DNA from: a virus
Lineage: Duplodnaviria > Caudoviricetes
Strand: one strand, 5' to 3'
IMG/VR virus record: IMGVR_UViG_3300043434_000734
Location: 149,707-213,706 of that record
DNA length: 64,000 nucleotides
Shown: in pieces, positions 8,674 to 41,258 of the stretch
Layout of the letters: the number at the start of each line of letters is the position of its first letter
How positions within the stretch are numbered: position 1 is the first letter of the stretch
The notes under the pieces: model-generated
The model's database searches: none
What the model saw: the letters and a program-made list of their open reading frames with translations, nothing else
What the model was told of the DNA's origin: nothing
Position numbers and translations under genes: made by a program

Positions 8674-9900
8674 TTATTGTTTAAATGGGTCGATAATTTG
8701 TTCTTTACCTGCACTATCTAATTGATTAGGTTTATTTGGTGATATTTTATTTTTTAATGTTTGAGTCAAACTATCAACTTTAGGTTGATATTCTTGGTTT
8801 AAAGAATCTAATTTAGGTGAGATTTTTTTTATTAAAGTGTCTGCTTTATTTTTGATATATTCTTTAGTCTTCTGTACATTAGTTTTATCATTTTTCTTAT
8901 TTTTAATAAAAATCGCATATCGAACAATACTGTCTAATGTTAATCCTATGTAAATAAAAAGAGCATATGGGTTAAGTGACACTATCACCTTTCCAATATA
9001 TTGTGCGGCCGCCTTAACCCCAAAAGTTGTGTAACCATCTGCACCCAATGGTCCCTTAAAAGGACCATCTTCACCAGATGCCCTTACAAGGTCCAACGCA
9101 CCACTAATAGTCGTTGACCCAATAATAACCATACTGGTGTATTTTGAATCTTTTATATTACGAAGAAAATCAACAATTCCATCATTTAATCTGTTAATTA
9201 TTTTTTGTGATAAATTTTTTTCTTCTCCTAATTTTTTCATATTATCCCTTACCTTGACTAACATTTCTTTCTGTTCTGTTGGTGATAGTCTGTCATATGA
9301 TTTTTTTAGATTATTTAGGTGAATTTCAAATTTAGGTGATATTTTTGCAATTTCTTTCTGTACTGCTGAACGTACTTCAAGAATAAATAATTTACGGTCA
9401 GTTGGTCGAAACTTTTTTAAAAGTCCAAAATTTTTCATTTCATCACCAAAAAACGACCATAATTCATCAATATTCTGTGTAAGTGGAGTGACTCTTGGAG
9501 TTTTCGGTATTTTTAAATTTACCACGTCGTTAGCAAATGCGTTTTTAATACCTAATCTATTTGCAATGTTGGCTTTAGCTTGTTTTATTCCCTGTGTGGT
9601 TGTTAAATCTGATACTCTTAATATTAACTCAATTTCCCTTTCTTTATTTGCAATTATTGATTTAGCAATAATCTGTCTATATTCCTTAAACTCGACCCTT
9701 AGTAACGCTTTTGATATTTCCTCGTCGGTGGCTCTAGTGAGTTGTCTAACTGACGGATTAATTTTTTGAACCGCACTTAAAAGTGCCCCGTTTGCCTCAC
9801 CAACACCCTTTCCCGCAGCTCTTAATGCAAATTCAAAGGCGGCTAAGGGACCTTTTATTGCTTCGTTTAACACCTCACTGTGAATTTCCTCTAATTTCAT
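8674..9900 (-). CDS. hypothetical protein, probable virion protein
   Basis: 408 aa, N-terminal VLNEA, two hydrophobic segments, TATTTATT upstream. Confidence 0.7.
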   Translation of the reverse strand: MKLEEIHSEVLNEAIKGPLAAFEFALRAAGKGVGEANGALLSAVQKINPSVRQLTRATDEEISKALLRVEFKEYRQIIAKSIIANKEREIELILRVSDLTTTQGIKQAKANIANRLGIKNAFANDVVNLKIPKTPRVTPLTQNIDELWSFFGDEMKNFGLLKKFRPTDRKLFILEVRSAVQKEIAKISPKFEIHLNNLKKSYDRLSPTEQKEMLVKVRDNMKKLGEEKNLSQKIINRLNDGIVDFLRNIKDSKYTSMVIIGSTTISGALDLVRASGEDGPFKGPLGADGYTTFGVKAAAQYIGKVIVSLNPYALFIYIGLTLDSIVRYAIFIKNKKNDKTNVQKTKEYIKNKADTLIKKISPKLDSLNQEYQPKVDSLTQTLKNKISPNKPNQLDSAGKEQIIDPFKQ

Positions 9901-9923
9901 AATAATAAATATTGTTTTAGTGA

Positions 9924-10922
9924 TTAATCTTCAAAATCCTCAGGTTTCGCAATTTTTTCGTTTGACCCTCTATTAATCATTTTATCTTCTTCTTTTTTTT
10001 CTTTATATTTAAGACCACCATACATCACAAAACCACTAGCCAGTATATCAAACCCAAATCTTTGTAAATTTAAATTTTTATAAAACGCGGCGGCAGATGC
10101 CTTAGGTAATTTACCACTTTTAAGTAAATTATTAATTTGAGTGGCAACTCTTAACGCTTCTTGTTTAGTTGCTACCTTACTCATTACAATCCCCTTAATT
10201 ATATTATTTAATGTATTGGGGTCTTGTTTTAATACTTGCTGTACAATATATTGTTCTTGTTTAGTTAATTTTGATATTGCAGATAAAACCTGTTCTTCAG
10301 TTTTTAATGGTGCCAAATACTTAGCCAACTTTTGCGCCGTTTCAACGGACACCGTTCCTATTTTTAATGACTTACCAATTAAAGGTATAAACGCTAAAAT
10401 TCCTGCAATACCCGCCCCGTAACTATCTTTTTTATTGAAGTACAAATCTGCTGAGGCTATAACGTCCAATCCGATTGAGATCCACAATCCTTGAGCACCG
10501 GGAATAAAACAAGCGGCCAAAATAGATCCTCCCATCAACGCCCATTGTCCCCAAGCGTCCCAATTTGTTTCTTTAGCAATCCAACTTACCAATTCTCTAT
10601 TTTCTCTATTAGATTTTTCCGCAGCTGCAGCGGTACCATATCTTCTATCAAATGCCAAATCATTTTGTTCTTTTAATGGATTACCTTTACCTCTTGTCAA
10701 TTTACTACCAACAACGTCGGACCATTTTGTGACACCGATTTGATTGCTGGATCCTCTAGTTACACCACTTTCCCATTTACCAACTTGTGGATAACCTTTA
10801 CCACCGGCCTGTGCACTTGACGTTCCCGTCTCAGGTTGTGATGAAACGGGTTCCGACTCAGATTGTTCTAATAATTTGAATATGATACCCTTGTATTGTT
10901 TTTCGGTTAAGATTAACTTCAT
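9924..10922 (-). CDS. hypothetical protein with TExQ leader and pre-toxin-TG-like hydrophobic region
   Basis: MKLILTEKQYK; YGAGIAGILAFIPLIGK. Confidence 0.7.
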   Translation of the reverse strand: MKLILTEKQYKGIIFKLLEQSESEPVSSQPETGTSSAQAGGKGYPQVGKWESGVTRGSSNQIGVTKWSDVVGSKLTRGKGNPLKEQNDLAFDRRYGTAAAAEKSNRENRELVSWIAKETNWDAWGQWALMGGSILAACFIPGAQGLWISIGLDVIASADLYFNKKDSYGAGIAGILAFIPLIGKSLKIGTVSVETAQKLAKYLAPLKTEEQVLSAISKLTKQEQYIVQQVLKQDPNTLNNIIKGIVMSKVATKQEALRVATQINNLLKSGKLPKASAAAFYKNLNLQRFGFDILASGFVMYGGLKYKEKKEEDKMINRGSNEKIAKPEDFED

Positions 10923-11007
10923 AACTTATAAATATCCAATAAAAACTTTGAAAACGATACGGATATAATGAAAAATACCCTTTTTTCGGTAAAATATAAA
11001 GTTTAAA

Positions 11008-11379
11008 CTATTCCCCGTAAATTGTCGGGTCTATTTTTGCGTACATTTTAATATATTGACCCGCCTTTGCGTTGGCCTCATCTTCTATTTCACCACCAAT
11101 GTCGGGTGGTTGCGGCCCATCTAAACGACCATCTTCAAACTGTTTGTGATGAACCATTTCGTGAGCGATACTTCTCATAACATCAACTAATGCACGTCCC
11201 TTAGAACATACCTTAATTATCTTATTTTCCTTAGTATAGTCGTAATTTGCGGTAGTCTTCAATCCATCCCTATTATTTTGGATTTTGATTGTAGGTACAG
11301 TCTTAATCTCTAACTGTTCTTTTACAAATTTTACGAAACTATCAAGTTTCTCCTTATTATCGTCATTTAAAAAACTCAT
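11008..11379 (-). CDS. zincin-like metallopeptidase
   Basis: AHEMVHHKQ with downstream EDEANA. Confidence 0.7.
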   Translation of the reverse strand: MSFLNDDNKEKLDSFVKFVKEQLEIKTVPTIKIQNNRDGLKTTANYDYTKENKIIKVCSKGRALVDVMRSIAHEMVHHKQFEDGRLDGPQPPDIGGEIEDEANAKAGQYIKMYAKIDPTIYGE

Positions 11380-11392
11380 ACTACTATAAATA

Positions 11393-11644
11393 CTACAAAG
11401 TTAACTCTTCGGGTAAATCGTTATTTAAAAGATATTGATTTATTAGATTAAGAACAAATTCTTCATCAATATTATCTAAATCATCTTCATAAATTATATC
11501 AGGAGAGTAGTACACGATATCTTCAAAATCAAGTTTTAAAACTCGATAGTAACTATCACCATCCCCTTCAGTAGAAAACTCGACGTACAACATCCCGTTG
11601 TCATCGTTGTAATAGAATTCAAGTATATTCATTGTAAACATCAA
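11393..11644 (-). CDS. acidic hypothetical protein
   Basis: 83-aa ORF; start may be 11632. Confidence 0.7.
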   Translation of the reverse strand: MMFTMNILEFYYNDDNGMLYVEFSTEGDGDSYYRVLKLDFEDIVYYSPDIIYEDDLDNIDEEFVLNLINQYLLNNDLPEELTL

Positions 11645-11728
11645 TAATTATTTGAATTTTTATCAAAATCAAAAATATTATCACTATACGATACAAAAAC
11701 GATATTTTTTTGTTATTATTATTAATAT

Positions 11729-12052
11729 ATGGATTGGTATGTTATTGAATATCTTTATCCGGAATCTTTTAAAAGATTTACGAATACGATGTTTCCAAAT
11801 GTGGGGGTAATAAGTCTTTCAACCTTAGGGTTGTATGATTCTAAAAAACTTTATCATTTTTTTGATAAAGAAGGGATATATTTAACAATTGAAATGTACA
11901 ACCCAAAACAATGGGTGTTTACAATATCGTTAAAAAATGGTATTGTATTTGGACCAACACAAGATTCGAGACCAACAAGGGAAGAGACCGAAACAGATGG
12001 TTTTTTAGAGTGTTTTAGGTTATTAGATAAAAAATTAAAAGAGAATGTTTAA
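11729..12052 (+). CDS. hypothetical protein
   Basis: 107-aa ORF. Confidence 0.75.
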   Translation: MDWYVIEYLYPESFKRFTNTMFPNVGVISLSTLGLYDSKKLYHFFDKEGIYLTIEMYNPKQWVFTISLKNGIVFGPTQDSRPTREETETDGFLECFRLLDKKLKENV

Positions 12053-12063
12053 TACTATTTATT

Positions 12064-12360
12064 ATGGATATGTCAGTTAGTTTTCTTTTACAGGCCACAC
12101 GGGTATTACACGTAGACAACTACGATGATGATGAACTAACTATGATTTATAATTTTATGATAAATCTTGACAATGAGATTTTAAATGATTATAATAATAC
12201 TTGTACCATCTTATCTTATGATAATGATTTAGAGTTATACATAGAAATCGTTGACTCACTTATTACAATTTTTGAGGATAAAGAGGAATACGAAAAATGT
12301 GAACTTTTATTATTTAAAAGAAAAGAATCGGTAGAAATAATAAACAGTAAAACAATTTAA
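12064..12360 (+). CDS. hypothetical protein with UVR-like C-terminal motif
   Basis: FEDKEEYEKCELL. Confidence 0.65.
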   Translation: MDMSVSFLLQATRVLHVDNYDDDELTMIYNFMINLDNEILNDYNNTCTILSYDNDLELYIEIVDSLITIFEDKEEYEKCELLLFKRKESVEIINSKTI

Positions 12361-12364
12361 TATT

Positions 12365-12502
12365 ATGGCGGTTTTTGGAATGTCAGATGCGGAAAGAAAA
12401 AAAATATCCGAACAACATAAAGAACTTGAAAAAAAGGTAAAAGAACAAAAAGATTTAATTAAGAAGGGTTTACAGAAACCTGAAAATAAAAAGACCTCAT
12501 AA
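12365..12502 (+). CDS. 45-aa charged protein not in the ORF track
   Basis: MAVFGMSDAERKKISEQHKELEKK...; stop codon inside a bidirectional hairpin. Confidence 0.6.
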   Translation: MAVFGMSDAERKKISEQHKELEKKVKEQKDLIKKGLQKPENKKTS

Positions 12503-13588: not shown

Positions 13589-13589
13589 A

Positions 13590-18668: not shown

Positions 18669-18672
18669 TCCC

Positions 18673-19005
18673 TTATTTTTTCTTTTCGTCAATTGGTTGT
18701 TGTGAATATAATGTACGTTTGTGTTGTTTGATTTTTTCTTTAAGTTGGGAAATCAACTTTTGTGAATTTGATAAATCGGAGAATATTGTTGAAATTCTAC
18801 CTCCCATCATTGTTTTTAATCCTGACGGCGTAGAATCTTGCAACTTTCTTAATTCCTTAATAGTCTCATTTAAGGAATTTTGTAATTCTTCAATTTTAAA
18901 TTGTACTCTACTGAATTCATATCTGGAAACCTTAGATGATTCCTCTATTAAAATCTTACCTATAACTTCCTTTATGTGATTTTCGTTTATTAATGGTTTT
19001 TCCAT
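18673..19005 (-). CDS. coiled-coil hypothetical protein with leader-like N-terminus
   Basis: MEKPLINENHIKEVIGKILIEE. Confidence 0.7.
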   Translation of the reverse strand: MEKPLINENHIKEVIGKILIEESSKVSRYEFSRVQFKIEELQNSLNETIKELRKLQDSTPSGLKTMMGGRISTIFSDLSNSQKLISQLKEKIKQHKRTLYSQQPIDEKKK

Positions 19006-19006
19006 A

Positions 19007-19252
19007 TTAGATACCAAATTCTTTTTCTTCTCTATCTGTTAATTCACCGTCTTTTTTCATACCTTCTTTAATATACGTTCTGATTAATTTAGAAACGGTC
19101 ATATCCTTATGATTTGCCACCTTTTCAATTTCTTTAAGGTATGCCGGAACAACTCTAAATGTTAACATTTTAATAAGTTGTTTATGTTTTGGTTGGTCAG
19201 AATGTGGCTTTTCACCAGATGCCTGCAATTCTTTATAAGCCTTTGATGCCAT
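19007..19252 (-). CDS. ribbon-helix-helix-like DNA-binding protein
   Basis: MLTFRV...IEKVANHKDMTVSKLIRTYI. Confidence 0.65.
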   Translation of the reverse strand: MASKAYKELQASGEKPHSDQPKHKQLIKMLTFRVVPAYLKEIEKVANHKDMTVSKLIRTYIKEGMKKDGELTDREEKEFGI

Positions 19253-20533: not shown

Positions 20534-20717
20534 CTTCCCCAATTTCCCTCAAAAACAATAAAGTGCTATCATTTTGATTTCTACTTTTAATTACAATATC
20601 ACACATCCAAAAATCTTTTAAATTACTTACCGAATCTTCTTTTACTTGTGTTTGATTAACTTTACGATAAACCCAATAGAGTTTATCTTGATAATTTATA
20701 TACTCTCTGGGTAACAT
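20517..20717 (-). CDS. hypothetical protein
   Basis: 66-aa ORF coupled to the upstream gene. Confidence 0.65.
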   Translation of the reverse strand: MLPREYINYQDKLYWVYRKVNQTQVKEDSVSNLKDFWMCDIVIKSRNQNDSTLLFLREIGEAKIVS

Positions 20718-21352
20718 TATTTAAATTTAATTCCTGTTAATTTTTCAATATCGACCAAATCGACCTTATTGTTATTTATCCCATCAGGATTTGATAAATC
20801 GTTCTCAAATAAAAACGCCATCCACTCTTTAGTTTTTACTGTATAAACAACTTTCCAACATTGTTTTGGAACTGCGACCTTACCAATTCTTTTTAATTCT
20901 CCAAGATTACCGGCCCAAATATGAACAGAATCTTCTCTCGTTGATATTTCTCTAGTTAAAGTTTCCAAAGATTTCCAATCACCCGCATTTAATCTATGGT
21001 ATTGTGCCGCCATATTACTAAAATAAAAACATTCGTTTTGCACTTCAGGTGTTTGGCATTGATTCGATTTTGCGGGCATTAAATGTCCTCTATCGAACCC
21101 ACTTTTTACATAATCTTGATCTAAATCAGTTTCTTTTGGTAATAACGGATCAGGTTTAAAACGGTCAACTCTAGGTAGTGGTTTTTCACAAGCAACTTTC
21201 GCTTTAGTCTCCCACCACTCAACCATTATCGGGTATTTTTTTGATTTACTATAATGTGATGTGTAATTGGTGTGTTTTAAAATTACCACGTCTTGTGCAA
21301 TTGTTACAAAACTAATAATAAGTATTGTAATCAATAATAACCCTTTTTTCAT
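20717..21352 (-). CDS. DNA/RNA non-specific endonuclease with signal peptide
   Basis: FDRGHLMPA, FYFSNMAAQ; hydrophobic N-terminus ending IAQ. Confidence 0.92.
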   Translation of the reverse strand: MKKGLLLITILIISFVTIAQDVVILKHTNYTSHYSKSKKYPIMVEWWETKAKVACEKPLPRVDRFKPDPLLPKETDLDQDYVKSGFDRGHLMPAKSNQCQTPEVQNECFYFSNMAAQYHRLNAGDWKSLETLTREISTREDSVHIWAGNLGELKRIGKVAVPKQCWKVVYTVKTKEWMAFLFENDLSNPDGINNNKVDLVDIEKLTGIKFK

Positions 21353-21903: not shown

Positions 21904-21904
21904 T

Positions 21905-23455: not shown

Positions 23456-23469
23456 ACTATTTATACAAT

Positions 23470-23892
23470 ATGAAATATATATTTACGGAAAATCAGATTA
23501 AGAAAATCATTGATTCACAATTAAACGAACAAATCTCACCAAAAACGAAAGTTTCTGGAGCTATTAAAGACGCTGTAACAATACAAGGTAACATCGATAT
23601 AATAAAACGTTTAAAAACACAAAAAGTTAAATTAGTCGTTTTAGGTTTTCGTTCAGACGTTAACGATAGAAATTCTAAAACACCTACAGTCGTTGGTTCA
23701 ATTGCCGGTACTCCGATTGATAAAAATGCTAAGGGTAAGCAATTTGACAATAACACTGTCATTACATTAAATAGTGGTTCGACATTAGTATTTGGTGTTG
23801 TTGGAGCTGAACCTCATCTTGCAATGGCAAATGGTGGTTTAACCGTAAAAAATGACAATGGTAAATTGACATTAGACTTTGCTTGGGACTAA
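23470..23892 (+). CDS. hypothetical protein with TExQ leader
   Basis: MKYIFTENQIKKIIDSQLNEQ. Confidence 0.75.
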   Translation: MKYIFTENQIKKIIDSQLNEQISPKTKVSGAIKDAVTIQGNIDIIKRLKTQKVKLVVLGFRSDVNDRNSKTPTVVGSIAGTPIDKNAKGKQFDNNTVITLNSGSTLVFGVVGAEPHLAMANGGLTVKNDNGKLTLDFAWD

Positions 23893-24902: not shown

Positions 24903-24956
24903 GAAAATCCCACATTTTGGTATTTTCAAAAGGTATTTATTATATATTTATGTAGT

Positions 24957-26531
24957 ATGAGAATACAAGATTTGGTTTTTGACGTATTAGTTGAAGAAGT
25001 TAAGAATAAGAAACTTTTTAACTATCTATTAGAAAAATGGTATGGTAATAAACCAACCGACGAACAAATAAAACAGTGTGAAGAAATCATCGAGGATTTT
25101 AATAGATTAAAAGATGGTTTTTCAACTAAGAAGTCCCAAATACTCACATTTTTAACAATGTTTGATGGACTTCACGGGTCTGAAAAATTTGATGAGAATA
25201 ATTTAAAAGATATTACCAAATACTCGTTCACACAAATTTTAGCTCTATTAGACGAATATGATGAAGATGGGGCAAACGAAGAATCCGAAGATAGTATTTT
25301 TGCAGGGTCAGATAAAAAAGCAACACCTGAAAGAATTCAAGCGTCAAAGGACCTTTGGAATGGTGATGAATATAAAATAATTGACGAAGGAGATTTAAGA
25401 GTGTATGCCATACCTGACCAAAGAGTTTCAATGAATTTTGGTTATTATGAACAATATATTGCAAGAAAACAAGGTGGTGAACAGTGGTGTGTAACTGGTA
25501 GAAATTCAAGTGATTCACGCTCAAATTTGTGGGGGTCATATAGAAATAGAAGAACTTTCTATTTTGTTATTGATGACACCAAAGATGAAAATAACAAACA
25601 CCACGTAAGTGCACTTCAAAAAACCGAAGGAGACAGCCCAACTGGTTTTAGATTAACCAATGCTAGAAATGATGGTGACCACCCACTTACTTGGGAAGAT
25701 ATTGTTACCATTTATCCAAAATTATCCGAACACCGAGATTTAATCGTCACCGTTAAATACGATGAAGAATCTGAATTGGAAAATAAAGATCTTGTTAACC
25801 GAATCAACGAAAGAGAGGGGGATAAACTTGAATTTAGAAGAATGTCAAGGCCCTATAAAAAGGCATACATTGAAAGAGGTTCGGTCATTAGTAAAGCGCG
25901 TTCTTGGGAATCTATAGACAGAACGTTGAGAAATTTATATATATTAACCACAACTGATAGAAACGCATTAGATAGATTTCAAACTTTTGAATTGATGTCG
26001 GAAATCAAAAAAGTCGGTAGTGAATTTAATTTATTAAATAATAGATTAAAGCAAGTTGGTTTGAACGGAGTCTCGATAATTTATGACAATTTGATGAAAA
26101 CCGAATTTGATGTTGCTAGAACTAGTATCGACAACAGGGCAATCAAAATGTATAAAAGTAGAAGAACCCATAAAATGGGTTTATATAATGGTCAACAAGC
26201 CTCTTGGGTAAATTCAAACGGTGTAACATTTGAACCACATTATTCTGAAAGTGACACGTCACTTTATGTTGATGACGCTGGAAATATGTACGTTGTTGAG
26301 ACATTTACAACGGGAGGACAACCAGATAACACAAGTTTCTATTGTGTATACCCAATTGTTGAAACTAATGAATTAGCTAGCGGTCATTTCATAGATGCTC
26401 AAATGTTCGAACAGTTAAAAACCAAATTACACCCAAAAGATGAAGGTCAAGAAGATGATGACGTTGTAAGAATATCGGATTTTAATCCCGAAACGGATGT
26501 TAATATTAAAGAAATGAAAAAGGGACTATAA
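24957..26531 (+). CDS. large hypothetical protein, probable virion protein
   Basis: 524 aa; VLVEE leader; QWCVT...YFVID motif. Confidence 0.75.
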   Translation: MRIQDLVFDVLVEEVKNKKLFNYLLEKWYGNKPTDEQIKQCEEIIEDFNRLKDGFSTKKSQILTFLTMFDGLHGSEKFDENNLKDITKYSFTQILALLDEYDEDGANEESEDSIFAGSDKKATPERIQASKDLWNGDEYKIIDEGDLRVYAIPDQRVSMNFGYYEQYIARKQGGEQWCVTGRNSSDSRSNLWGSYRNRRTFYFVIDDTKDENNKHHVSALQKTEGDSPTGFRLTNARNDGDHPLTWEDIVTIYPKLSEHRDLIVTVKYDEESELENKDLVNRINEREGDKLEFRRMSRPYKKAYIERGSVISKARSWESIDRTLRNLYILTTTDRNALDRFQTFELMSEIKKVGSEFNLLNNRLKQVGLNGVSIIYDNLMKTEFDVARTSIDNRAIKMYKSRRTHKMGLYNGQQASWVNSNGVTFEPHYSESDTSLYVDDAGNMYVVETFTTGGQPDNTSFYCVYPIVETNELASGHFIDAQMFEQLKTKLHPKDEGQEDDDVVRISDFNPETDVNIKEMKKGL

Positions 26532-26541: not shown

Positions 26542-27381
26542 TTATGATAGTAATGAATAATATTCTTTAAAGTGTTTAATTCGGTCCGCTAACCCTATCG
26601 TCCCACCATTAACTCTTTTTGTAATTTTGGTAACTACTGTGTCGGTAGCACCCTCATCCGCCATTTTATGTAATCCATTTTTACTAAAAAACCAAGCTGC
26701 GGATAATAATGCGTAATCTGAAGCAACTTTATCAGGATTTGATAAAATATCTTCGTTTATTGACTTTCCGAATGCCGTGTAATTTTCTTTACCAGTTAAT
26801 TGAATATAACCACGTCCACAGAATTTAGCACCTTCCCCTGACGATTCAGGACCATTACCCATTCTATTTCCGTAAACTCTGTTTGCAATTTTTATTGGTT
26901 GTCTTTCATATGGTTTTGCGGCAGCCTCAGTTGGAAAGTACTTCTTAAATGTACCGGTTAATCCTTTAGCCGAATAATTGAGATTTTCCTTTGTTAGTCT
27001 AAAACCACCCGATTCGTGACCACATTGTGCTAAAAAATGTGCTAACCTTAACGGTGTATTAATTTGAAATTTTGCAGCAGTATCGGGAATTTGTCTTATA
27101 ACAGCATCGGGAATGTGACCTTTTAATTTTTCCAATTTTAACCCACCGAGTGATGACACAGGTGCCGGTTCAGTGATTAATGACGATGATTCAGTTACAA
27201 CTGAAAACATTTTATTCCACGTCCCATCACCAACGATTCCGTCAGGTGTTAACCCATTTGCGGATTGCCAAGATTTAACTGCGACATCCGTTTTAGGGCC
27301 AAATTTACCAATTGGGTCCACACCTAATTTAACTTGAAGTTTTTTAACATCTTCACCTTCTGATCCTAATTTAAGTAACAT
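26542..27381 (-). CDS. endolysin: PG-binding domain plus GH19
   Basis: LKLGSEGEDVKKLQ...DGIVGDGTW; HFLAQCGHESG, GRGYIQLTG, RVNGG. Confidence 0.92.
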   Translation of the reverse strand: MLLKLGSEGEDVKKLQVKLGVDPIGKFGPKTDVAVKSWQSANGLTPDGIVGDGTWNKMFSVVTESSSLITEPAPVSSLGGLKLEKLKGHIPDAVIRQIPDTAAKFQINTPLRLAHFLAQCGHESGGFRLTKENLNYSAKGLTGTFKKYFPTEAAAKPYERQPIKIANRVYGNRMGNGPESSGEGAKFCGRGYIQLTGKENYTAFGKSINEDILSNPDKVASDYALLSAAWFFSKNGLHKMADEGATDTVVTKITKRVNGGTIGLADRIKHFKEYYSLLS

Positions 27382-27451
27382 ACTTTCTTTCTGTTTAATA
27401 GTTTATATATTAATAAATACAACTTATCTTTTTAAAGTATTTATATTAGAT

Positions 27452-28504
27452 ATGAAGAAATTAATATTAACGGAAGAACAACTTAAAAGAGTTATTGATA
27501 ATATTGTTACAGAACAAACGTTATCAAAAAACGGTGAAGAAACGACTCAAAATAAATGGAATTTATGTGGTTATAAGGTAATCGAAGAAGAAGGTCGTTA
27601 TTTTGTTGAGGACAGGTCTGGAAGAGTAGAGATTCCGTTTTTAGACCAATTACAAGGCGTAATTAGAGGTAGAGGAAATAACGCAACGTTGGAGTTAGAT
27701 GAATTAACCGAGAATGCCGTTAATGTTGGTAAACGTATGAAAGAAGGGGGTATGTGTGATAATAACCGTCCGATGCAATATAGAAATGCTGACGGTTGGA
27801 TTTGTTGTGTTAATCGAAATAATAAATCATTAAGGAAAAACCCTCAAACCGGAAAAGACGAATTAATTGACGTTGGTCCATACCCTATTTATACATCATA
27901 TTCATATAGGGGTCGATTGGGTATTGAAAGGTATCCCGATGAAAGTGTGTCACCCGCAAAAACGGTAAAACAAAAAGAGGGTTCTATCGTTCAATATAGA
28001 AAAACAAGAACTGAAAATTTTGTTTTTGAGGTGTCTCCCGAAATAATACCGAATGCGGTGTTTATTGAAACACAACCAACGCCCTTACCACCGACTAAAA
28101 ACCCAACCGTTTTTCAATTAAATATTGAAAAACCTTTTGAATTCGATAAACTAACGTTAACTTCAGAAGCTGAAGAACAATTTAGTGAATTTATTCAAAA
28201 AATGAAAAATGAATATCAGGGGGTAACGGGAAATGTTGAGGTAATATGTTCAGCATCTATCGATGCTGACCCCTCGAAAAAGGCCGATTACAACAAAAAA
28301 TTATCTGAAAATCGTGCATTAACGATAGTTAACAGATTAAAAAACGAAACGGGTATCACCACAATGAATTATATACCTAAAGGTATTGGGCAAACGGACC
28401 AATTTGCTCCCGGATTAAAATGGCCCGAAGTCACCGATGAAAATAAAACGGCCCCCAATAGACGACTTATTATTAATTTACCGAAAATAATAAAAAAACA
28501 ATAA
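27452..28504 (+). CDS. TExQ-leader protein with C-terminal OmpA-like domain
   Basis: FEFDK..., YNKKLSENRA, KGIGQT, NRR. Confidence 0.8.
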   Translation: MKKLILTEEQLKRVIDNIVTEQTLSKNGEETTQNKWNLCGYKVIEEEGRYFVEDRSGRVEIPFLDQLQGVIRGRGNNATLELDELTENAVNVGKRMKEGGMCDNNRPMQYRNADGWICCVNRNNKSLRKNPQTGKDELIDVGPYPIYTSYSYRGRLGIERYPDESVSPAKTVKQKEGSIVQYRKTRTENFVFEVSPEIIPNAVFIETQPTPLPPTKNPTVFQLNIEKPFEFDKLTLTSEAEEQFSEFIQKMKNEYQGVTGNVEVICSASIDADPSKKADYNKKLSENRALTIVNRLKNETGITTMNYIPKGIGQTDQFAPGLKWPEVTDENKTAPNRRLIINLPKIIKKQ

Positions 28505-28523: not shown

Positions 28524-28934
28524 TTAATATATAACAAATAGTGTTATATCGTCGACATTTTTACCTGATGAGTGATATAACACTACTTTACGTTTATCCC
28601 CAACGATTGGACCGCTGAAATTTTGATAAACCTCTTTATTTAATTTACCTCCCGAATTGGAATAATAAACATACTGATATTTTTGTGTCGATAGGTATTT
28701 TGAATCCATATACCGAATTATATCTTTTTTCTCAACTCTATCACATTTTGATAAGTCAATTTTTGAAACTGACAATACAGAATCTAATAAGATTTTACCA
28801 TTAGTTGTTAACACATTATTAAAGTTTTGTTCTGAATTGTTCCAATAATAAAGTTTCATTTTTATTGCTTCATTTTGGGAAAAACCCCAAAAACTAATGA
28901 GTGATAGTAATATAGTGACAATTATTCTTTTCAT
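28524..28934 (-). CDS. secreted hypothetical protein
   Basis: Signal-like MKRIIVTILLSLISFWGFSQ. Confidence 0.7.
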   Translation of the reverse strand: MKRIIVTILLSLISFWGFSQNEAIKMKLYYWNNSEQNFNNVLTTNGKILLDSVLSVSKIDLSKCDRVEKKDIIRYMDSKYLSTQKYQYVYYSNSGGKLNKEVYQNFSGPIVGDKRKVVLYHSSGKNVDDITLFVIY

Positions 28935-30218: not shown

Positions 30219-30665
30219 TTAATTATGTTTCCCACACCAAGGACAAATTGGTAAAGACTTCTTTTTCTTGTGCGTTGTCTGAGTGTATAATTTTTTACAA
30301 GCTTTACACTTCAAGAATTTGGCGTCTTTATTTAAGTCATCGATGCTTTTAACTTGTTTATCTGTAAGTGAACCTAATCTAATTTCATCATTTTCTTCTA
30401 ATCTATCCGTTACTTTAAATCTAAGTGGATTTGACAATCTTTCAGGTTTACTAAATAATCTTTTTTTTCGTGTAAATGCAAAACTCCGACTTCTTTCATC
30501 TATTTCTTCCTCTTTATTGACGTGTCCACATTTGTGACAAGTAAAAGAGTCGTCACCCCCGTCCGACAAGTCCCACCCCCAACCGCATTTTTCACATTGA
30601 ATCTTTTCAGATTTAATTGATTTTTTTAGAATGCCCAATTGACTCTCTGTCAAGATTATTTTCAT
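30219..30665 (-). CDS. TExQ-leader protein with two zinc ribbons
   Basis: MKIILTESQL; CEKC/CHKC and CKAC/CPWC. Confidence 0.75.
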   Translation of the reverse strand: MKIILTESQLGILKKSIKSEKIQCEKCGWGWDLSDGGDDSFTCHKCGHVNKEEEIDERSRSFAFTRKKRLFSKPERLSNPLRFKVTDRLEENDEIRLGSLTDKQVKSIDDLNKDAKFLKCKACKKLYTQTTHKKKKSLPICPWCGKHN

Positions 30666-30710
30666 ACGGATTTCTTGTTTATTATAAATATTTCAGTTAT
30701 ATTTAAAATT

Positions 30711-33503: not shown

Positions 33504-33563
33504 ATCTAAGTAAAAGTAAGTATAAACTATTTCTTTTTAAAGATTTAAATTCTATATTTTAAT

Positions 33564-34355: not shown

Positions 34356-35116
34356 ACGAAATAAAAGATAAATTCGAAGTTTTAGAAATTAACGAAGATA
34401 TTTTTGATAATCCGAAATGGTACGATGAAATTTTATTCATACTAAATGAGTTTCTACCGGATGTGATATTTCACGTCGGGGCTTGTTCTGATACGTTAGA
34501 AACCGACGTTAACTATATGATGACGAGGAATTACGAATTTACTCGTTGTTTGTCCGAGTGGTCGAATTCACTTAATAAAAAATTAATTTACTCATCATCA
34601 GCCGCCAACTACGGTATCAACGGTGTTTATCCATCTAATCTTTATGGATGGAGTAAATATGTTGCGGAACAATTGGTTATTAAAAATGGCGGAATCGGAT
34701 TAAGATACTTCAATGTGTACGGTCCATTAGAGGACCATAAAGGTAGAATGGCCTCGGTTGCGTATCAAATGTTAGAAAAACAAAAAAAAGGTCAGGAAAT
34801 CAAACTATACCCCCTTAAACCACACCGCGATTTTGTTTACGTGAAAGATGTTGTCGATGCTAATCTTTTTGCTTATGAATTCTACAACCAACATTCAGGT
34901 GATTGGTATGAAGTGGGTAGTGGGGAATCAAGAACATTTGAGGATGTTTTGGATATTTTAAAAATTGATTACACCTACTTTGATGAAAAAGACATCCCTA
35001 AAGGTTATCAGTTTAACACTAAAAGCAAGTCAATGCATTGGATGTTGGAGTGGGAGCCGAAATGGAATTTAGAAAATGGGTTGAGGGATTATATGGATTT
35101 TCTACGAACCAAATAA
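34301..35116 (+). CDS. hldD: ADP-L-glycero-D-manno-heptose 6-epimerase
   Basis: GACSDT, YSSSAANYG, LYGWSK, LRYFNVYGP, HKGRMAS, RDFVYVKD; GTG start. Confidence 0.88.
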   Translation: MEKAIITGTKGFVAKNLLNEIKDKFEVLEINEDIFDNPKWYDEILFILNEFLPDVIFHVGACSDTLETDVNYMMTRNYEFTRCLSEWSNSLNKKLIYSSSAANYGINGVYPSNLYGWSKYVAEQLVIKNGGIGLRYFNVYGPLEDHKGRMASVAYQMLEKQKKGQEIKLYPLKPHRDFVYVKDVVDANLFAYEFYNQHSGDWYEVGSGESRTFEDVLDILKIDYTYFDEKDIPKGYQFNTKSKSMHWMLEWEPKWNLENGLRDYMDFLRTK

Positions 35117-35719
35117 ATTAAGTTCGTCGGATCTTCTTTTAACTAACCCTTGTGAAATACCACTACCGTCCATTCTAAATTCAGACCAATTTCTTCTTAA
35201 TGATTTAAGATTACCCGAATTTATATCTTCTAAAAGTTTTGAATTAATAAATCGTTTTCTACCAATGTTGTATATTAACGACACTAATGCATCAAATTCA
35301 TTTTGAGTTAGTGGTACTTTGACATATTCGTTTATTGCACTTACGGCAATTTTATTTATATCGTTTTTTAATATTTGTAAAGCGGTTGGTTCACTCACTC
35401 GTTTGTTCTCTAATTCGGGGTGAAAATCAATTCTAGTGCCATAACCAATTGTTTTCTTACCACTTGGACATATATATGTGGTTGGGCTAAACTTCTCAAA
35501 TTTCTTAATCATATCAACGGCTCTTTGACTAAACGTCTTAGCACTTCTAATTGGGTTTTTATCCAACTGTAAACCTTGTCTTGCACGTTGATTTCTTTCG
35601 AATTCACCACCTTTACCTAAATAATCACTTTTGGGTACATTATCCACTGGTGGGACATACTTAAACTGCTGCTCCTTTATTATTTTTTTTAATTGATTTT
35701 CCGTGATTATGATATTCAT
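35102..35719 (-). CDS. GH24 lysozyme with TExQ leader
   Basis: KKFE...Y...TIGYG, LTQNEFDALVSLIYNIG, GLVKRR. Confidence 0.9.
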   Translation of the reverse strand: MNIIITENQLKKIIKEQQFKYVPPVDNVPKSDYLGKGGEFERNQRARQGLQLDKNPIRSAKTFSQRAVDMIKKFEKFSPTTYICPSGKKTIGYGTRIDFHPELENKRVSEPTALQILKNDINKIAVSAINEYVKVPLTQNEFDALVSLIYNIGRKRFINSKLLEDINSGNLKSLRRNWSEFRMDGSGISQGLVKRRSDELNLFGS

Positions 35720-35738
35720 ACCTTAATAAATACCAATA

Positions 35739-35987: not shown

Positions 35988-36058
35988 AATGTGTTTTTTT
36001 AAAACATAAACAAAAAACCCCTCATTGTGGAGGGGTTTTTAAAATTAGTATGTTTTTT

Positions 36059-36325
36059 TTATTCAGTAGGAGGTGTAACGCTGTGTACGTTGTACTTCGA
36101 TAAAATATCAAAATAGGATACAATTTCACTTGGCTCACCGTTAATAGATTTCATTTTAGCTTTTAATTGACCATCTGAGTCCTTCAACAATGCAACGAAA
36201 CCGATTCCGTCACAAGTAAATTCTTTTTCCATATCAGGTCCTAAATTTGAAGAAACTTCAGTAATTGAAAATTCAACATCGACATTCTCTCCTGTCCATT
36301 CTTTGTATTCTAATGAGTATCCCAT
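36059..36325 (-). CDS. hypothetical protein, tandem paralog A
   Basis: SLEYKEWTG...CDGIGF...GQLKAKMKS. Confidence 0.8.
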   Translation of the reverse strand: MGYSLEYKEWTGENVDVEFSITEVSSNLGPDMEKEFTCDGIGFVALLKDSDGQLKAKMKSINGEPSEIVSYFDILSKYNVHSVTPPTE

Positions 36326-36366
36326 AGTATTTTGTTTTTATATAAATATCAAGATAATGTGGAAAA

Positions 36367-37590
36367 TTAATATTTTAAACTTTTCTTTTGGGTGACAGCA
36401 TCATCAAAATTATAAAACAAGTCCCACCAATTGTTAATTTTAGTTGACCCATCAACAATATCATTATTAAAACCTGGTACCGACTGCCACCAAAAAATAA
36501 ACCATTTAGTTTGTGAATCTGTTGAATAATCCACATTACCGGTTAATCCGGCACTTGGGGATATCATACTAATTTTAGTCTCAAATTGGTATTTTTTATT
36601 TAACCACGTATCTACATTTACGTCGACATAGGTCCCACCCGAAGGTTTCCAAGTCATAATATCCGACTTCGCGGGTATTTTATTTGAATAGTCGTAATCT
36701 TTTGTTGAATTAGGACACCAATGTGTATTGCCACCCCTACCTACTTTTGCAAATTGATTACTCCAAGTTGAGTTATCGAAAAACATCATTTGTCTCTCCA
36801 ATTGATGACCTCTATTATGTAAATCGGTATCGACCCCTCTCCAACCATTATCACCATACACCACATACGTTTTATTGTATCTTGGTAAATCGGTCATTTC
36901 ACCACCACCGTTTGACACGTCGTAATAACTTGCCCCTTTTTTTGGTGACATATTGGATTCAGGTACATTGTAACTAAGGTACCCGTGTTCTCTTGGAAAT
37001 GATGTGAACCACACTTCTTTTACCCCTAAAGAGTCAACGTATTTTTCTAAACCGACTCTCCCCATCAATTCATTAAAATCGATATTCCACCAATCTCTTT
37101 TATAATTCGGACTAATTCCAATATAGTTATATTTGACGTCATATACGTTAATGTACGCTACCACATCAATTGTTACATATTGTTTTACGGTGTTCGTGGC
37201 ATAATCTCTAAATTTAGTCCCCTCCTCGATTGCGTTTTTCTCAATTATTTTATCTTTGAGTATTTTTTCTTTTGCTCTTTCTAATGTGTAATAAGGACCC
37301 GTCATATTTTGACCAACAGAGTCTTGTGTCCTATTTCTATCTAATTCGATACCGTCTTTAGTTGGTAAATAATTTATAATAACAATCGGTACCACTATTT
37401 TACCAACATCTAATGATGCCTTTAATCTTGAATCAATCGGAACAATTTCAACACCGGTCGGTATCTTAGGCACTATCGGATTTGAACTTACCGTATCAAT
37501 TTTCCCAACAACCACAGGTTGTGGTTCAATAACCTCCTTAGTACAACCGAATAATAGTATAGATAATACGAGACACTTAAAATTTGTCAT
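36367..37590 (-). CDS. lipoprotein, possible metallopeptidase-like
   Basis: Lipobox LFG-C; HNRGHQLE. Confidence 0.65.
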   Translation of the reverse strand: MTNFKCLVLSILLFGCTKEVIEPQPVVVGKIDTVSSNPIVPKIPTGVEIVPIDSRLKASLDVGKIVVPIVIINYLPTKDGIELDRNRTQDSVGQNMTGPYYTLERAKEKILKDKIIEKNAIEEGTKFRDYATNTVKQYVTIDVVAYINVYDVKYNYIGISPNYKRDWWNIDFNELMGRVGLEKYVDSLGVKEVWFTSFPREHGYLSYNVPESNMSPKKGASYYDVSNGGGEMTDLPRYNKTYVVYGDNGWRGVDTDLHNRGHQLERQMMFFDNSTWSNQFAKVGRGGNTHWCPNSTKDYDYSNKIPAKSDIMTWKPSGGTYVDVNVDTWLNKKYQFETKISMISPSAGLTGNVDYSTDSQTKWFIFWWQSVPGFNNDIVDGSTKINNWWDLFYNFDDAVTQKKSLKY

Positions 37591-37692
37591 AATTTTTTAT
37601 TTATAGGACAAAGATATATGTATATTTAGAATATACCAAAAATATTTTAGTATTTTTTTTATAAATTTTAAAATATATTGAAAATCAGTAAG

Positions 37693-39249
37693 TTACATTC
37701 TAATGTCCCCTAAATAATCATTAAGGATTTCATTAAAATAATCTTCGTTTACGTCAGGTGTCCACCTATCATCAACTCGGAAATTGGGCTTACCGTAATA
37801 ATCACCCATTAATTCATCAAATACACATTCGTAACTATCGTCGCACCTCTCGAAGTAATCATCTAAATCATCTAAATCATCCTCACTAACTCCGTGACCA
37901 TCAATTATTGTCTGTAAATTAATTTTAATGGTTACACCTTCGTCATTTAATTGAGTTACTTCACCATATTCTTCAAGTGCATTTCTTAGTGAATTTTTAT
38001 AGTATACATAATATGAATCATTTTCAGCTGAGGATAATGCATTACCTAAGGCGCTTCTTATTTCATAATTATTATCAAATTCCTGAATTAGTTCATTTAA
38101 AGATTTACCCTCAATCTCATCTGGATTTGTAAACCCCTTTATTAAATCCCAAATAATTTGAATATTCTCATCGTCGGCGTAATATTCTAAAGCCAAACTC
38201 CATTCACCATTACCCTCAAACAAATCAAAATAATCACCACTTAATAACGTTTCAAACATTCCTGTAGATCGTTGATTACCACGACTATCTTTCCATTTTC
38301 TTACCGTCCAATCACCATCAACATAACGTGAAATATATGACGGCTCAATATGTAAATCAAAATACATTTCTTCTTTAGATCTATTGGCAACTAAACCAAT
38401 CTTTTGTAGTGCACGTCTACCTTTTCTACCTTCAAATAAATCAGGTTTCTCTTCGTATATTTCTTTAATCTTTTCCTCGGGTAAATCAGTTAATTGAAAA
38501 TCTTCTTCGGACGCATATTCTGAACCAAACTTCTCAACAATATCACTCATTATAAATGGAATGATATAAGGGTGAGTTTCCGATGTTGGTTTCTTATTAC
38601 GTGGACCCTTCATTTGTAAAAGTACACCGTCATCATTAACTGATGCAGTAACAAAACTTCTATTCTTAGTGAATTTGGTATTTTCTATAGGTGAGGTAAA
38701 CCTCAATGAATAAAGATTACCCGAACTTCTACCACAATGACCCATTCTTTTGGATTCTTCATCACAATCTCTAGTTTCAAGATCCACCCAATAATAACCA
38801 AATCCTTTATCGTTTCTAAAATCAACAACAACAGGATGTTCTTCTTTGTAATCTATTGTAGAATCCCCCACACCTAATTCATCGTGCCATTTTTTAGATT
38901 CGGCAACTAGTTGGTCAAATGTTAAATTTTGATATGGTTTAACATTACCATTTAATCCTACACGAATCCAATCCATAACAGATGTAATGTGTTGTCTTGA
39001 TGTTTGTAATGTATAACCTTGATTTAAATAATTGATTGTATCTTGTCTACTTGTTTCCAACCCTTCTCTTTGTTTTGAGAATTGTATGTGTACAATGTCA
39101 ATTAATTTATTTGCCATAAAAACGGAAAGAGGTCCACATAACGATGTTAAAAAGTCGGCATTCTTCTCACTTAATCCCAACTTTTCAATTAGAACATCTT
39201 TTTTACTGGCTTCAACAATTAAATTATATAGTATGTTGTTAAATTTCAT
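37693..39249 (-). CDS. large protein with PcfJ-like domain
   Basis: ESKRMGHC...YSLR...QMKGPRNKKP; LIVEA leader. Confidence 0.6.
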   Translation of the reverse strand: MKFNNILYNLIVEASKKDVLIEKLGLSEKNADFLTSLCGPLSVFMANKLIDIVHIQFSKQREGLETSRQDTINYLNQGYTLQTSRQHITSVMDWIRVGLNGNVKPYQNLTFDQLVAESKKWHDELGVGDSTIDYKEEHPVVVDFRNDKGFGYYWVDLETRDCDEESKRMGHCGRSSGNLYSLRFTSPIENTKFTKNRSFVTASVNDDGVLLQMKGPRNKKPTSETHPYIIPFIMSDIVEKFGSEYASEEDFQLTDLPEEKIKEIYEEKPDLFEGRKGRRALQKIGLVANRSKEEMYFDLHIEPSYISRYVDGDWTVRKWKDSRGNQRSTGMFETLLSGDYFDLFEGNGEWSLALEYYADDENIQIIWDLIKGFTNPDEIEGKSLNELIQEFDNNYEIRSALGNALSSAENDSYYVYYKNSLRNALEEYGEVTQLNDEGVTIKINLQTIIDGHGVSEDDLDDLDDYFERCDDSYECVFDELMGDYYGKPNFRVDDRWTPDVNEDYFNEILNDYLGDIRM

Positions 39250-39354
39250 ATTCTATAAATATCAAAAAAAAGGATATGAGTAGCGAATTCATATCCTCAA
39301 ACGGGAAAAGTAACTAGTCCCGGTCCTAAGCAGGGTCTTCAAACCCTGGGTATC

Positions 39355-39687
39355 TTATAAAAATCTATTAAATTCAGATTTTATTTTATTAACTGATTCA
39401 TTGATTTCGTATTCAACACTTTCATCAAATTCAACATCAACGGACTCATTGTCGTTTGAAACTTCCTCACCGTTGGTTGATAATTTATTTGAAAGGTCAA
39501 CCATTAACTTATCGATTAACTCTTGATTGTCACCAACCAATTCTTTGAATTGACTAACGAAACTATCTGTCATTCTTTCGGCCTCACTAGCAACATCCAT
39601 TGGTTCAACACCGTCGGCTTGTTCATTAAGATTTTTAGTCATAATTCTTTTTAATTGTTCTTCGGTGATTTTAAGTTTCTTTGACAT
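39355..39687 (-). CDS. acidic TExQ-leader protein
   Basis: MSKKLKITEEQLKRIMTKNLNEQ. Confidence 0.75.
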   Translation of the reverse strand: MSKKLKITEEQLKRIMTKNLNEQADGVEPMDVASEAERMTDSFVSQFKELVGDNQELIDKLMVDLSNKLSTNGEEVSNDNESVDVEFDESVEYEINESVNKIKSEFNRFL

Positions 39688-39761
39688 TTTTGTGTATTTG
39701 TATATAAATATCGGTTATTTATTTAAAACGTTTTATTTACCGTTAATTAGTTATATTCTCA

Positions 39762-39875
39762 TTACTTCTTCAATAACTTTTTTAAGATTGCAAGATTACT
39801 TTTATATAATTCCATTTTCTTTCTTCCTGAACGTACACTTCTCATTGCACGTGGTTTTTTTAATTTTGTCCCCAT
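39762..39875 (-). CDS. 37-aa basic peptide not in the ORF track
   Basis: MGTKLKKPRAMRSVRSGRKKMELYKSNLAILKKLLKK; TATTTATA at 39891-39898. Confidence 0.6.
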   Translation of the reverse strand: MGTKLKKPRAMRSVRSGRKKMELYKSNLAILKKLLKK

Positions 39876-39975
39876 AATAAATGTCTTTTATATAAATACA
39901 TAAAATCCCACAAATTTCAACGGGGGTTCCGGCGTGCGAAAACAAAACCGTGAAAGGGGCTTCCGGTCATCAAAA

Positions 39976-40209
39976 TTATACGGGAAGAACACATAAACGT
40001 TCAAACTCATCATTTCTTAACGCAAATGTTTGTTCGTGATTACCACCATCCGATTTAAGATGAACCAAATATAGACCCAAGTTTGTTTTCTCCACGTCGA
40101 TTTTTTGTCCGGGTATAAATCCCATATCCATCAACCTTAATCTTAGACAAGGTTTACAGTTATAACAGGGATTATTCTCAATGACGTCCGATATTTCGTA
40201 GTGTTTCAT
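39976..40209 (-). CDS. FeoA-like SH3 domain protein
   Basis: LRLMDMGFIPGQKI...ALRNDE. Confidence 0.75.
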   Translation of the reverse strand: MKHYEISDVIENNPCYNCKPCLRLRLMDMGFIPGQKIDVEKTNLGLYLVHLKSDGGNHEQTFALRNDEFERLCVLPV

Positions 40210-40210
40210 A

Positions 40211-40942
40211 CTAAGGTTGTTTATCGTACCACTTCTTTAACGACTCAATATAACTGGCGGTCATATGGTCCTTAATTGTCTTTCCCGTCACCACAGATTT
40301 AATATAATTCCAGACACGTTCCCAATCAATCATATACTTCTTAATATTACCCTCGTAGTCGATTCGTAACATATGGTTAACGTGATAGTATCCAATGTTC
40401 GGAGAACGTGTCACCAGGTCGTTATTATGGACGATTCTGAGGGTTTTAATGTTCATCTTATCATAGTTATCCTTAAAGGTCTTATTACCAACTCTGGGAC
40501 TCCCTATGGTACAACATTCAATAGGTGTATTTGTAAACACGTGTGAAAGATTATATGCACACAAGGTAGCAACCGCAGCACCAAGACTATGACCACACAC
40601 AACAATCTTATCATACCCACTCATCTTAGTGATATCTTTAAGAACGATGTTCTTAACGGCATCCCAAGAAGATAGGAAACCAATATGTACTTTATCACCA
40701 GGATTTATGAATGGAACCTTATCGATTGATGCATCGTTCTGAGCATCCTTCTTGGATGACGTTCCTCTGAAGACCACATAGAGTGACTTCCCTTTCATTG
40801 CAACAAATCCCTGTGTATCGGTTTTCTTATCATCAACCCATTTAACAGACGTTAGTCCGTATTCACCGAAGTCAATGTCTTTTTGGTCTTTGTATACAAC
40901 GTCACATAAGTGGACATTGTAGAGTATGTCGTCTTTTGTCAT
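40211..40942 (-). CDS. class 3 lipase
   Basis: VVFRGT, VHIGF, GHSLG, TIGSPRVGN, DLV; start moved to ATG 40942. Confidence 0.92.
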   Translation of the reverse strand: MTKDDILYNVHLCDVVYKDQKDIDFGEYGLTSVKWVDDKKTDTQGFVAMKGKSLYVVFRGTSSKKDAQNDASIDKVPFINPGDKVHIGFLSSWDAVKNIVLKDITKMSGYDKIVVCGHSLGAAVATLCAYNLSHVFTNTPIECCTIGSPRVGNKTFKDNYDKMNIKTLRIVHNNDLVTRSPNIGYYHVNHMLRIDYEGNIKKYMIDWERVWNYIKSVVTGKTIKDHMTASYIESLKKWYDKQP

Positions 40943-40946
40943 ATGT

Positions 40947-41258
40947 TTAAATCGGTCTATTACCACGGAACGCACGTTCCACGTCGTGTTTGGTGCAACC
41001 AAACCATTTGGCAATGTCCCTCATCATTGGGTACAATGCCTTATCGGATAGATGTGTTGGTCTACATTGGTCCTTAACATAGTCAGGAGGACACAGTTTA
41101 ATCCCATCAGTTGATTCCGTATAGTAACAACCCATATGTTTCATTGACCACGCAATAAGTTTCTTAACCTCCTTACTTGAGTGTTTGTCTTCGTTGAGGG
41201 TTTCAGTAGTGTTAGATATTAAAGTCCTTAATTGTTCTTCTGTTATAAGAATGTTCAT
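40947..41258 (-). CDS. TExQ-leader protein with possible HicA-like domain
   Basis: MNILITEEQL; SKEVKKLI...GC...KL.PP...H. Confidence 0.45.
   Translation of the reverse strand: MNILITEEQLRTLISNTTETLNEDKHSSKEVKKLIAWSMKHMGCYYTESTDGIKLCPPDYVKDQCRPTHLSDKALYPMMRDIAKWFGCTKHDVERAFRGNRPI

Follow-up and report, generated by a model that had tools for sequence, protein, structure and literature searches.

A portable, phage-specific N-terminal leader peptide in a clade of uncultured giant phages as a possible capsid-loading and cleavage signal

The DNA analysed here is a stretch of 64,000 nucleotides (nt), referred to as the window, that covers positions 149,707 to 213,706 of the IMG/VR record IMGVR_UViG_3300043434_000734 (Duplodnaviria; Caudoviricetes). 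The window has 31-37% G+C, carries tRNAs and a tmRNA and belongs to an uncultured freshwater giant phage, and genes identical to those of the window are found on a 209-kb contig from the Joint Genome Institute (JGI) and on a contig of ~214 kb. Seven of its open reading frames (ORFs), the bodies of which are unrelated, open with one and the same type of short N-terminal peptide, M-x(1-4)-h-h-T-E-x-Q-h (h, hydrophobic residue; x, any residue), which we call the leader. The seven ORFs and a looser variant are given below; an arrow marks a Glu after which cleavage is predicted, aa stands for amino acids, pI for isoelectric point, and the box is the upstream element TATTTAT.

9924..10922, minus strand: leader protein of 332 aa, pI 9.4, no body family; leader codons at about 10857-10922 (MKLILTE↓KQYK..LLE↓Q); box at 10928-10934.
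23470..23892, plus strand: leader protein of 140 aa, basic, no body family; leader at 23470-23535 (MKYIFTE↓NQIK..LNE↓Q); box at 23458-23464.
27452..28504, plus strand: leader protein of 350 aa that lacks a signal peptide and carries an OmpA-type peptidoglycan-binding domain at its C-terminus; leader at 27452-27520 (MKKLILTE↓EQLK..VTE↓Q); box at 27438-27444.
30219..30665, minus strand: leader protein of 148 aa with CxxC Zn-ribbon-like motifs; leader at 30600-30665; box at 30684-30690.
35102..35719, minus strand: leader protein of 205 aa, consisting of the leader, ~40 disordered residues and a T4-type lysozyme (residues 61-205); leader at 35654-35719; box at 35726-35732.
39355..39687, minus strand: leader protein of 110 aa, acidic (pI 4.3); leader at 39619-39687; box at 39704-39710.
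40947..41258, minus strand: leader protein of 103 aa; leader at 41193-41258; box at 41264-41270.
18673..19005, minus strand: looser variant of 110 aa, basic (MEKPLINE↓NHIK), with LINE as in the capsid-protein site; no box of its own, located behind the boxed gene 19007-19252.

When the pattern [ILVFMK][ILVFM]TE.Q[ILVYFM] was run on the six-frame translation of the window, 7/7 matches lay 2-6 residues past an initiator Met, as compared to a mean of 0.23 in shuffled sequence (30 shuffles). The ITExQ-type leader that the initial annotation had read at the start of these ORFs is hence borne out, also by the profile check that it had proposed: a hidden Markov model (HMM) built from the seven leaders and scanned over 101.5 kb of the genome gives them 28-37 bits, with the next best hit at 7 bits. 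Since ~112 kb of the genome lie outside the portion examined, the count of seven is a minimum. The Thr codon of the leader varies both in the window (ACC, ACG and ACA) and in the relatives (ACA 60, ACT 26, ACC 29 and ACG 8), and it is therefore the peptide, rather than the DNA, that is under selection; the reading of the leader as a DNA repeat was rejected because of this codon variation. The first cut motif of the leader, I/L-T-E, occupies residues 5-7. All seven leaders contain a second h-x-E motif, 8-16 residues past the first and with its Glu at residues 16-23, and each of them is followed by a low-complexity or Pro-rich stretch. Among 110 leader proteins from IMG/VR, the Glu of this second motif falls on residue 15 or 16 in 46 cases, while every other position accounts for 1-3 cases.

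As for its layout, the leader comprises an extended stretch of two or three hydrophobic residues, followed by a capped amphipathic helix, and I-T-E-x-Q-h reads as a hydrophobic staple combined with an N-capping box in which T is the N-cap and Q is N3. Such a structure would account for the invariance of T and Q and suggests the defined helix start as the recognised part of the leader. Since the invariant T-E-x-Q reads as a helix N-cap, the leader is more than a bare protease site. In the AlphaFold2 model of the lysozyme leader protein, residues 1-6 are extended and residues 7-17 form a helix (predicted local distance difference test, pLDDT, about 80), followed by a low-confidence linker (residues 18-60) and the enzyme from residue 61 onwards. 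Export signals were considered as well, namely a Sec or lipoprotein signal peptide and a signal-arrest-release (SAR) anchor, and were rejected, as inspection of the leader revealed neither a hydrophobic core of about 10 or more residues nor an AxA site or lipobox. Only 3 hydrophobic residues precede T-E, and the mean hydrophobicity of the helix is negative. Genuine signal peptides at 20717-21352 and 28524-28934 and a lipobox at 36367-37590 are unlike the leader.

These structural features raise the question whether the leader could be an uncleaved docking peptide, made of a strand and a capped helix, that inserts into another late assembly (tail, baseplate, neck or a non-virion complex) rather than into the head interior. 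The conserved T-E-x-Q with its flanking hydrophobic residues is a textbook helix N-cap plus staple and as such points to a binding module; likewise, expression of the leader genes appears to be of the late class, and the wall-active bodies found behind the leader would also suit a tail tip. We nevertheless consider this unlikely, since cytoplasmic enzymes such as the CCA-adding enzyme, the methyltransferases and the InPase described below would make poor external virion parts, and since the motif copies the cut site of the capsid protein and the second h-x-E is enriched.

The TATTTAT box is present within 45 nt upstream of 7/7 leader genes as compared to 23/143 other genes (Fisher p = 7e-6), which amounts to 30/150 genes, or ~20%, in total. 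It likewise precedes the portal, protease, scaffold and terminase genes, a leaderless endolysin gene and all four genes of a second leader type (type 2, see below), and the distance from its end to the ATG is 4-7 nt in most cases and up to 36 nt in others. The box looks like the late promoter of the clade, and from this common element the leader genes and the head genes may belong to one late class. With a box so close to the ATG, late mRNAs would be leaderless or nearly so, and this Bacteroidota phage encodes bS21 as well. One could hence imagine that the leader represents a translation or mRNA feature of such messages and not a protein signal: given the spacing of 4-7 nt in most leader genes, transcription may begin at the ATG or right beside it, and the first codons are A/U-rich. 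From our point of view this is very improbable, as T is encoded by freely varying synonymous codons and codons ending in G occur at E and Q, as the portal and terminase genes have the same box spacing without any leader, and as some proteins contain the peptide internally or in tandem.

The distribution of the leader was followed in related phages and beyond. Three large IMG/VR sequences, referred to as G002 (270 kb), G013 (322 kb, complete) and G016 (294 kb, complete), carry head genes that are 58-69% identical to those of the window phage and form one clade with it. The closest cultured phage is Flavobacterium phage immuto, which is distant (38% identity in the capsid protein), and a megablast search of 12 kb against phages returned no match. 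A degenerate DNA pattern for MK-x-h-h-T-E-x-Q-h, scanned over IMG/VR, matched at least 120 stretches; among the 144 matches listed, 127 open ORFs of at least 50 aa, 118 show the extended consensus and 63 have TATTTAY within 25 nt. Again among the matches listed, 121 of the 127 viral ORFs of at least 50 aa begin within 30 codons of an upstream stop. Overall, the leader heads at least 123 distinct IMG/VR ORFs, which fall into at least 66 unrelated body clusters. The same pattern gave 120 matches over 185,579 cellular genomes, only 6 of them leader-like and none with the box, and an exhaustive profile search of 1.84 billion representative proteins yielded 86 clusters at E <= 0.001, nearly all of which were aligned from residue 1. 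The complete genomes G016 and G013 contain 14 and 11 leader ORFs, respectively, most of them 100-180 aa long and some in arrays of a single paralogue family. No strict leader was found in the more distant T4-like phages immuto, Mel-JY01, RM378 and two huge phages, with immuto containing one weak internal IITESQ only. The small paralogue family and the Zn-ribbon protein had no match among cultured phages, and no relevant mention of the leader peptide strings was found in the literature. Five proteins from the exhaustive profile search (P0012, P0031, P0049, P0013 and P0024) contain two leader copies, either in tandem or as an N-terminal plus an internal copy (around residues 113-151), which may represent a fusion of two cargo genes around the cut module or gene-calling across a frameshift.

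The leader is combined with bodies that exist elsewhere without it. Relatives of the leader lysozyme are 142-150 aa long and begin at the enzyme domain, and an L5-gp82-like body occurs without a leader in Bacillus and Mycobacterium phages. Within the clade, the syntenic gene in a 76%-identical relative of the window phage, L086, has only the first 21 residues in common with 40947-41258. It could still be argued that the leader proteins are diverged paralogues with a kept N-terminus and that no movable tag exists, as the largest group is indeed a true paralogue family (MKYLITESQ[IL]D..IFKYLDNQDF) that occurs in arrays of 5-7 genes and is similar beyond the leader. However, the bodies are assigned to different Pfam families (lysozyme, OmpA, M23, PolyA_pol, InPase and methyltransferase) and body homologues elsewhere begin without a leader, so that we regard common descent of the whole proteins as extremely improbable. 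The leader genes lie in an accessory region of very fast turnover (window positions 8000-43000 compared with G002, G013 and G016). Within the 101.5 kb, 109 of 150 proteins had no tblastn match (E 1e-5) in G002, G013, G016 or immuto.

Regarding the bodies in the window, the lysozyme that had been proposed from the sequence is confirmed (PF00959, 1.6e-29), and the OmpA-like domain stands as well, with a match just over the cut-off (PF00691, 29.5 bits). The proposed Zn ribbons hold in part, as the CxxC motifs are present and the family matches remain below threshold, whereas a HicA-like body was rejected because the family searches gave no support for it. Four of the seven leader bodies have no Pfam family. 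The leader lysozyme at 35102-35719 is distinct from the leaderless endolysin at 26542-27381, and both the OmpA-like protein and the second lysozyme of the window have no export signal, while neighbouring genes have true signal peptides or a lipobox. For the OmpA-like protein, a word-index homologue search with residues 1-40 returned only the protein itself, and a related-locus search found no relative. Orthologues of other leader proteins retain the leader: that of 30219-30665 in G002 begins with MRKLHITEAQL, and that of 39355-39687 in L086 keeps the leader and the C-terminus without the middle. The C-terminal helix of 39355-39687 (..KIKSEFNRFL) resembles the C-termini of the scaffold and the protease, and a protein at L086:3559-4059 opens with MKHTLNE↓QITRIKFMM.., a helix of the same type that is N-terminal here. 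The looser member at 18673-19005, which had been described as such, fits a variant found three times in G002 (MKILINE↓NQL). Directly downstream of 40947-41258, a class-3 lipase (PF01764) is encoded at 40211-40942 (minus strand), followed by a small FeoA-like ORF, both without a leader.

In the wider set, Pfam searches with 66 representative bodies identified wall-active domains, namely Peptidase_M23 (2), PG_binding_1 (2), LysM, Hydrolase_2, GH19, glucosaminidase and lysozyme, as well as PolyA_pol/CCA-adding enzyme, HD, methyltransferases and cREC_REC. A nine-member leader family has a domain in common with N4-like virion RNA polymerase (vRNAP) genes of Vibrio phages, and the vRNAP of N4 is packaged in the capsid and injected (PMC5512222). 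Further, an 836-aa leader protein carries a polyvalent-type InPase domain directly behind the leader; according to PHROGs this domain sits within DarB-like, minor-head and virion proteins, and Iyer et al. predict that it is packaged and injected (PMC5512222).

The second leader type, which had been described as ending in (L/V)xE(A/E/Q), concerns four genes:

37693..39249, minus strand: type-2 leader protein of 518 aa, PcfJ-like lead, with the motif RMGHC; MKFNNILYNLIVE↓AS, kept in 7 orthologues; box at 39255-39261.
8674..9900, minus strand: type-2 candidate of 408 aa, basic (..EVLNE↓A); box at 9905-9911.
24957..26531, plus strand: type-2 candidate of 524 aa (..DVLVE↓E); boxes at 24934-24940 and 24945-24951.
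60120..61019, plus strand: weak type-2 candidate of 299 aa (MKILKVLKE↓Q); box at 60109-60115.

All four starts contain [VL][LIV]xE with the Glu at residue 9-13, and the N-termini are weakly similar to one another. The proposal holds in part: only in the 518-aa family is the motif conserved among orthologues (LI[VL]E↓AS in 7 sequences), and the other three are candidates by their motif. The type-2 N-termini would fit a T4-like capsid-targeting sequence (CTS) more literally than type 1, for example with ..NLIVE↓AS. A paralogue of the 518-aa family in G002 has an ITESQ-type leader instead, and the two Glu sites align. The family is duplicated in that genome (139391-140737 and 160560-162116), with leaders that differ between the copies; its PcfJ-like lead comes from a protein atlas (0.92).

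By walking upstream of the window along the JGI contig (loci L112 and L113), we could read the head module of the phage, which is located ~30-37 kb before the first base of the window. It encodes, in this order, the large terminase, a T4-type portal, a 239-aa protein, bS21, a 141-aa protein, an S77 (gp21-type) prohead protease, an acidic scaffold of 405 aa and a gp23-type capsid protein, and Pfam identifies PF03420 (the S77 protease), PF07068 and PF07230 in L113 and also in G002, G013 and G016. The N-terminus of the capsid protein, ENQAS[YH]LINE↓[AS], is invariant in four genomes, with IVSE↓A at the same place in immuto, and LINE↓A/S is the predicted capsid maturation site. The h-h-T-E of the leader (I-I-T-E) has the same h-h-x-E shape as this LINE site, and three leaders in G002 (MKILINE↓NQL..IINE↓A) repeat LINE exactly. 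The prohead protease itself has a conserved GILIE↓Y near its start; its T4 counterpart gp21 has LIE-9 (PMC9026906). In T4, proteins are cut on the C-terminal side of the Glu in hydrophobic-x-Glu motifs (PMC9026906, PMC5694885), and the predicted capsid-protein site fits this rule. A similar pattern is seen in the 239-aa protein encoded after the portal, which opens with MLTKLTE↓SY and has LMLE↓SY in its G013 orthologue. The bS21 gene (L113:15748-15939, minus strand) lies inside the head module, between the genes for the 239-aa and 141-aa proteins; in Microcystis phage Mel-JY01, rpsU is found ~2.5 kb upstream of the capsid gene. Adjoining the head module are genes for an AAA+ protein (L112:5322-7340, plus strand; two-ring, ClpA/B/C-like, 672 aa) and for Hsp20 (L112:4808-5164, minus strand). 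The AAA+ protein is 57-75% identical across the clade and 44% identical in a 484-kb huge phage, and is absent from immuto.

The leader might alternatively be a recognition tag for another phage machine, either this ClpB/ClpC-like AAA+ protein, acting as unfoldase or degron reader, or a modifying enzyme such as the glycosyltransferases and 2-oxoglutarate (2OG) oxygenases of the window. Wherever a leader-bearing contig covers the head region, it does encode the AAA+ protein (57-75% identity), and the leaderless immuto lacks this protein. This co-occurrence may, however, only reflect contig coverage, because the AAA+ gene adjoins the head genes. In addition, the 484-kb phage (LR756508) has the AAA+ protein without a strict leader, another sequence (G017) has a leader-like ORF and the S77 protease without the AAA+ protein, and no enzyme was found whose presence follows that of the leader from gene to gene, which altogether leaves a reader of this kind rather improbable.

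The most economical explanation would, from our point of view, be that the leader is a T4-CTS-like prohead-targeting propeptide that is removed by the S77 protease, a proposal to which we give an even chance and in which every functional step, i.e. core binding, cleavage, packaging and ejection, is one that we infer. Late in infection, the tag would bind a component of the scaffold core and thereby build otherwise unrelated proteins into the prohead. The S77 (gp21-type) protease would then cut after Glu, at ITE↓ and/or the downstream h-x-E↓, and free the cargo in the head, from which it would exit together with the DNA at the next infection. Wall-active cargo such as the lysozyme and the OmpA-like protein would act in the periplasm, and the CCA-adding enzyme or the InPase in the cytoplasm. 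What is established here is the tag with its strict N-terminal position, its portability and its restriction to phages, along with T4-type head genes, a motif match to the capsid site and a common promoter-like box. The portable capsid-loading and cleavage tag of the initial annotation consequently stands as far as portability (unrelated bodies, the homologues of which are leaderless elsewhere) and phage specificity are concerned; its function in the capsid is favoured by the T4-type head with an S77 protease, by an h-h-x-E as in the predicted capsid site, by the box in common with the head genes and by some bodies of kinds known or predicted to be packaged and injected.

In T4, a CTS is found on the internal proteins IPI-III and on Alt and is removed by the prohead protease gp21 (Mullaney and Black 1996; reviewed in PMC9026906, PMC3012670). 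Like it, the leader is a short peptide right after the Met on unrelated, fast-evolving proteins and ends in hydrophobic-x-Glu; homologues of gp20, gp21, gp22 and gp23 are present, the genes appear to be of the late class, and it is plausible that the cargo acts once it reaches the next host. In sequence, the two presumably have only the M-K start and the h-x-E end in common, and homology is not claimed. Unlike in the T4 CTS, conservation of the leader runs across and past the first Glu (T-E-x-Q-h, capped helix) and two cut motifs are nested; moreover, a whole clade of uncultured phages of 200-320 kb carries the leader on 66 or more body families, and many of the cargos are enzymes. Another precedent is provided by gp53 and gp54 of SPN3US, with conserved first 15 residues and tandem cut motifs (PMC5694885). 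These proteins and the propeptides of phiKZ and 201phi2-1 resemble the leader proteins in that conserved N-termini with two tandem x-E motifs sit on diverged proteins, in jumbo phages that encode a gp21-type protease and eject many head proteins (PMC5694885, PMC9026906). In contrast to the leader, their propeptides mostly exceed 100 residues, use A/S-x-E and occur on paralogues instead of unrelated enzymes, and their cleavage is proven by mass spectrometry. The packaged effectors of the polyvalent and MuF/DarB type have the same repertoire (polyvalent-type InPase, lysozyme, peptidases) and are thought to enter the host with the DNA, but they are fused in one giant carrier (portal/MuF/DarB-like; Iyer et al. 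2017, PMC5512222), whereas here separate small genes stand behind a common leader. Finally, the cargo-loading peptides of encapsulins are short and portable as well and send unrelated enzymes into an HK97-fold shell; unlike the leader as proposed here, they are usually C-terminal and uncleaved, bind the shell protein directly and are not part of a virus.

Several observations weigh against a CTS-like role. The invariant T and Q are unneeded for a gp21-type site and point to a structural or binding role that is not necessarily linked to the capsid. The residues that follow ITE in the leader (P1') are S, N, E or K, unlike the A or S at the capsid-protein site, and genome-wide, h-h-x-E is enriched only 2-2.8 fold in the first 22 residues over the interiors of proteins. 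The co-occurrence of leader and S77 protease is not specific, because leaderless T4-like phages such as immuto have the protease too. Furthermore, the leader genes are not adjacent to the head module, no cultured phage with the leader was found, and although 6/7 leader proteins of the window are basic (p = 0.02), the wider set does not show this bias. A predicted complex of the leader (40 aa, 50-row alignment) with the N- and C-terminal domains of the scaffold and with the protease scored 0.00, which speaks neither for nor against the proposal. We hold it possible, at somewhat less than an even chance, that the ITE-x-Q capped-helix leader and its type-2 cousins constitute a clade-wide capsid-loading code that can be read from sequence.

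Even if this reading fails, the leader is still a very widespread phage-specific N-terminal module that is found neither in Pfam nor in the searchable literature. If it is true, the few internal proteins of T4 would have grown, in these phages, into a large and rapidly exchanged cargo library of separate small genes that are swapped behind a constant tag, as between the window phage and L086. For a large group of uncultured jumbo phages of Bacteroidota, the set of injected proteins could then be deduced directly from sequence and would comprise wall hydrolases, an OmpA-like anchor, a CCA-adding enzyme, an InPase, methyltransferases and dozens of proteins of unknown function. The leader would also offer a candidate protein-delivery tag for Bacteroidota phages. 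As such, one motif would mark the proteins that enter the cell ahead of gene expression, i.e. the first layer of takeover and counter-defence, which is at present invisible without virion proteomics.

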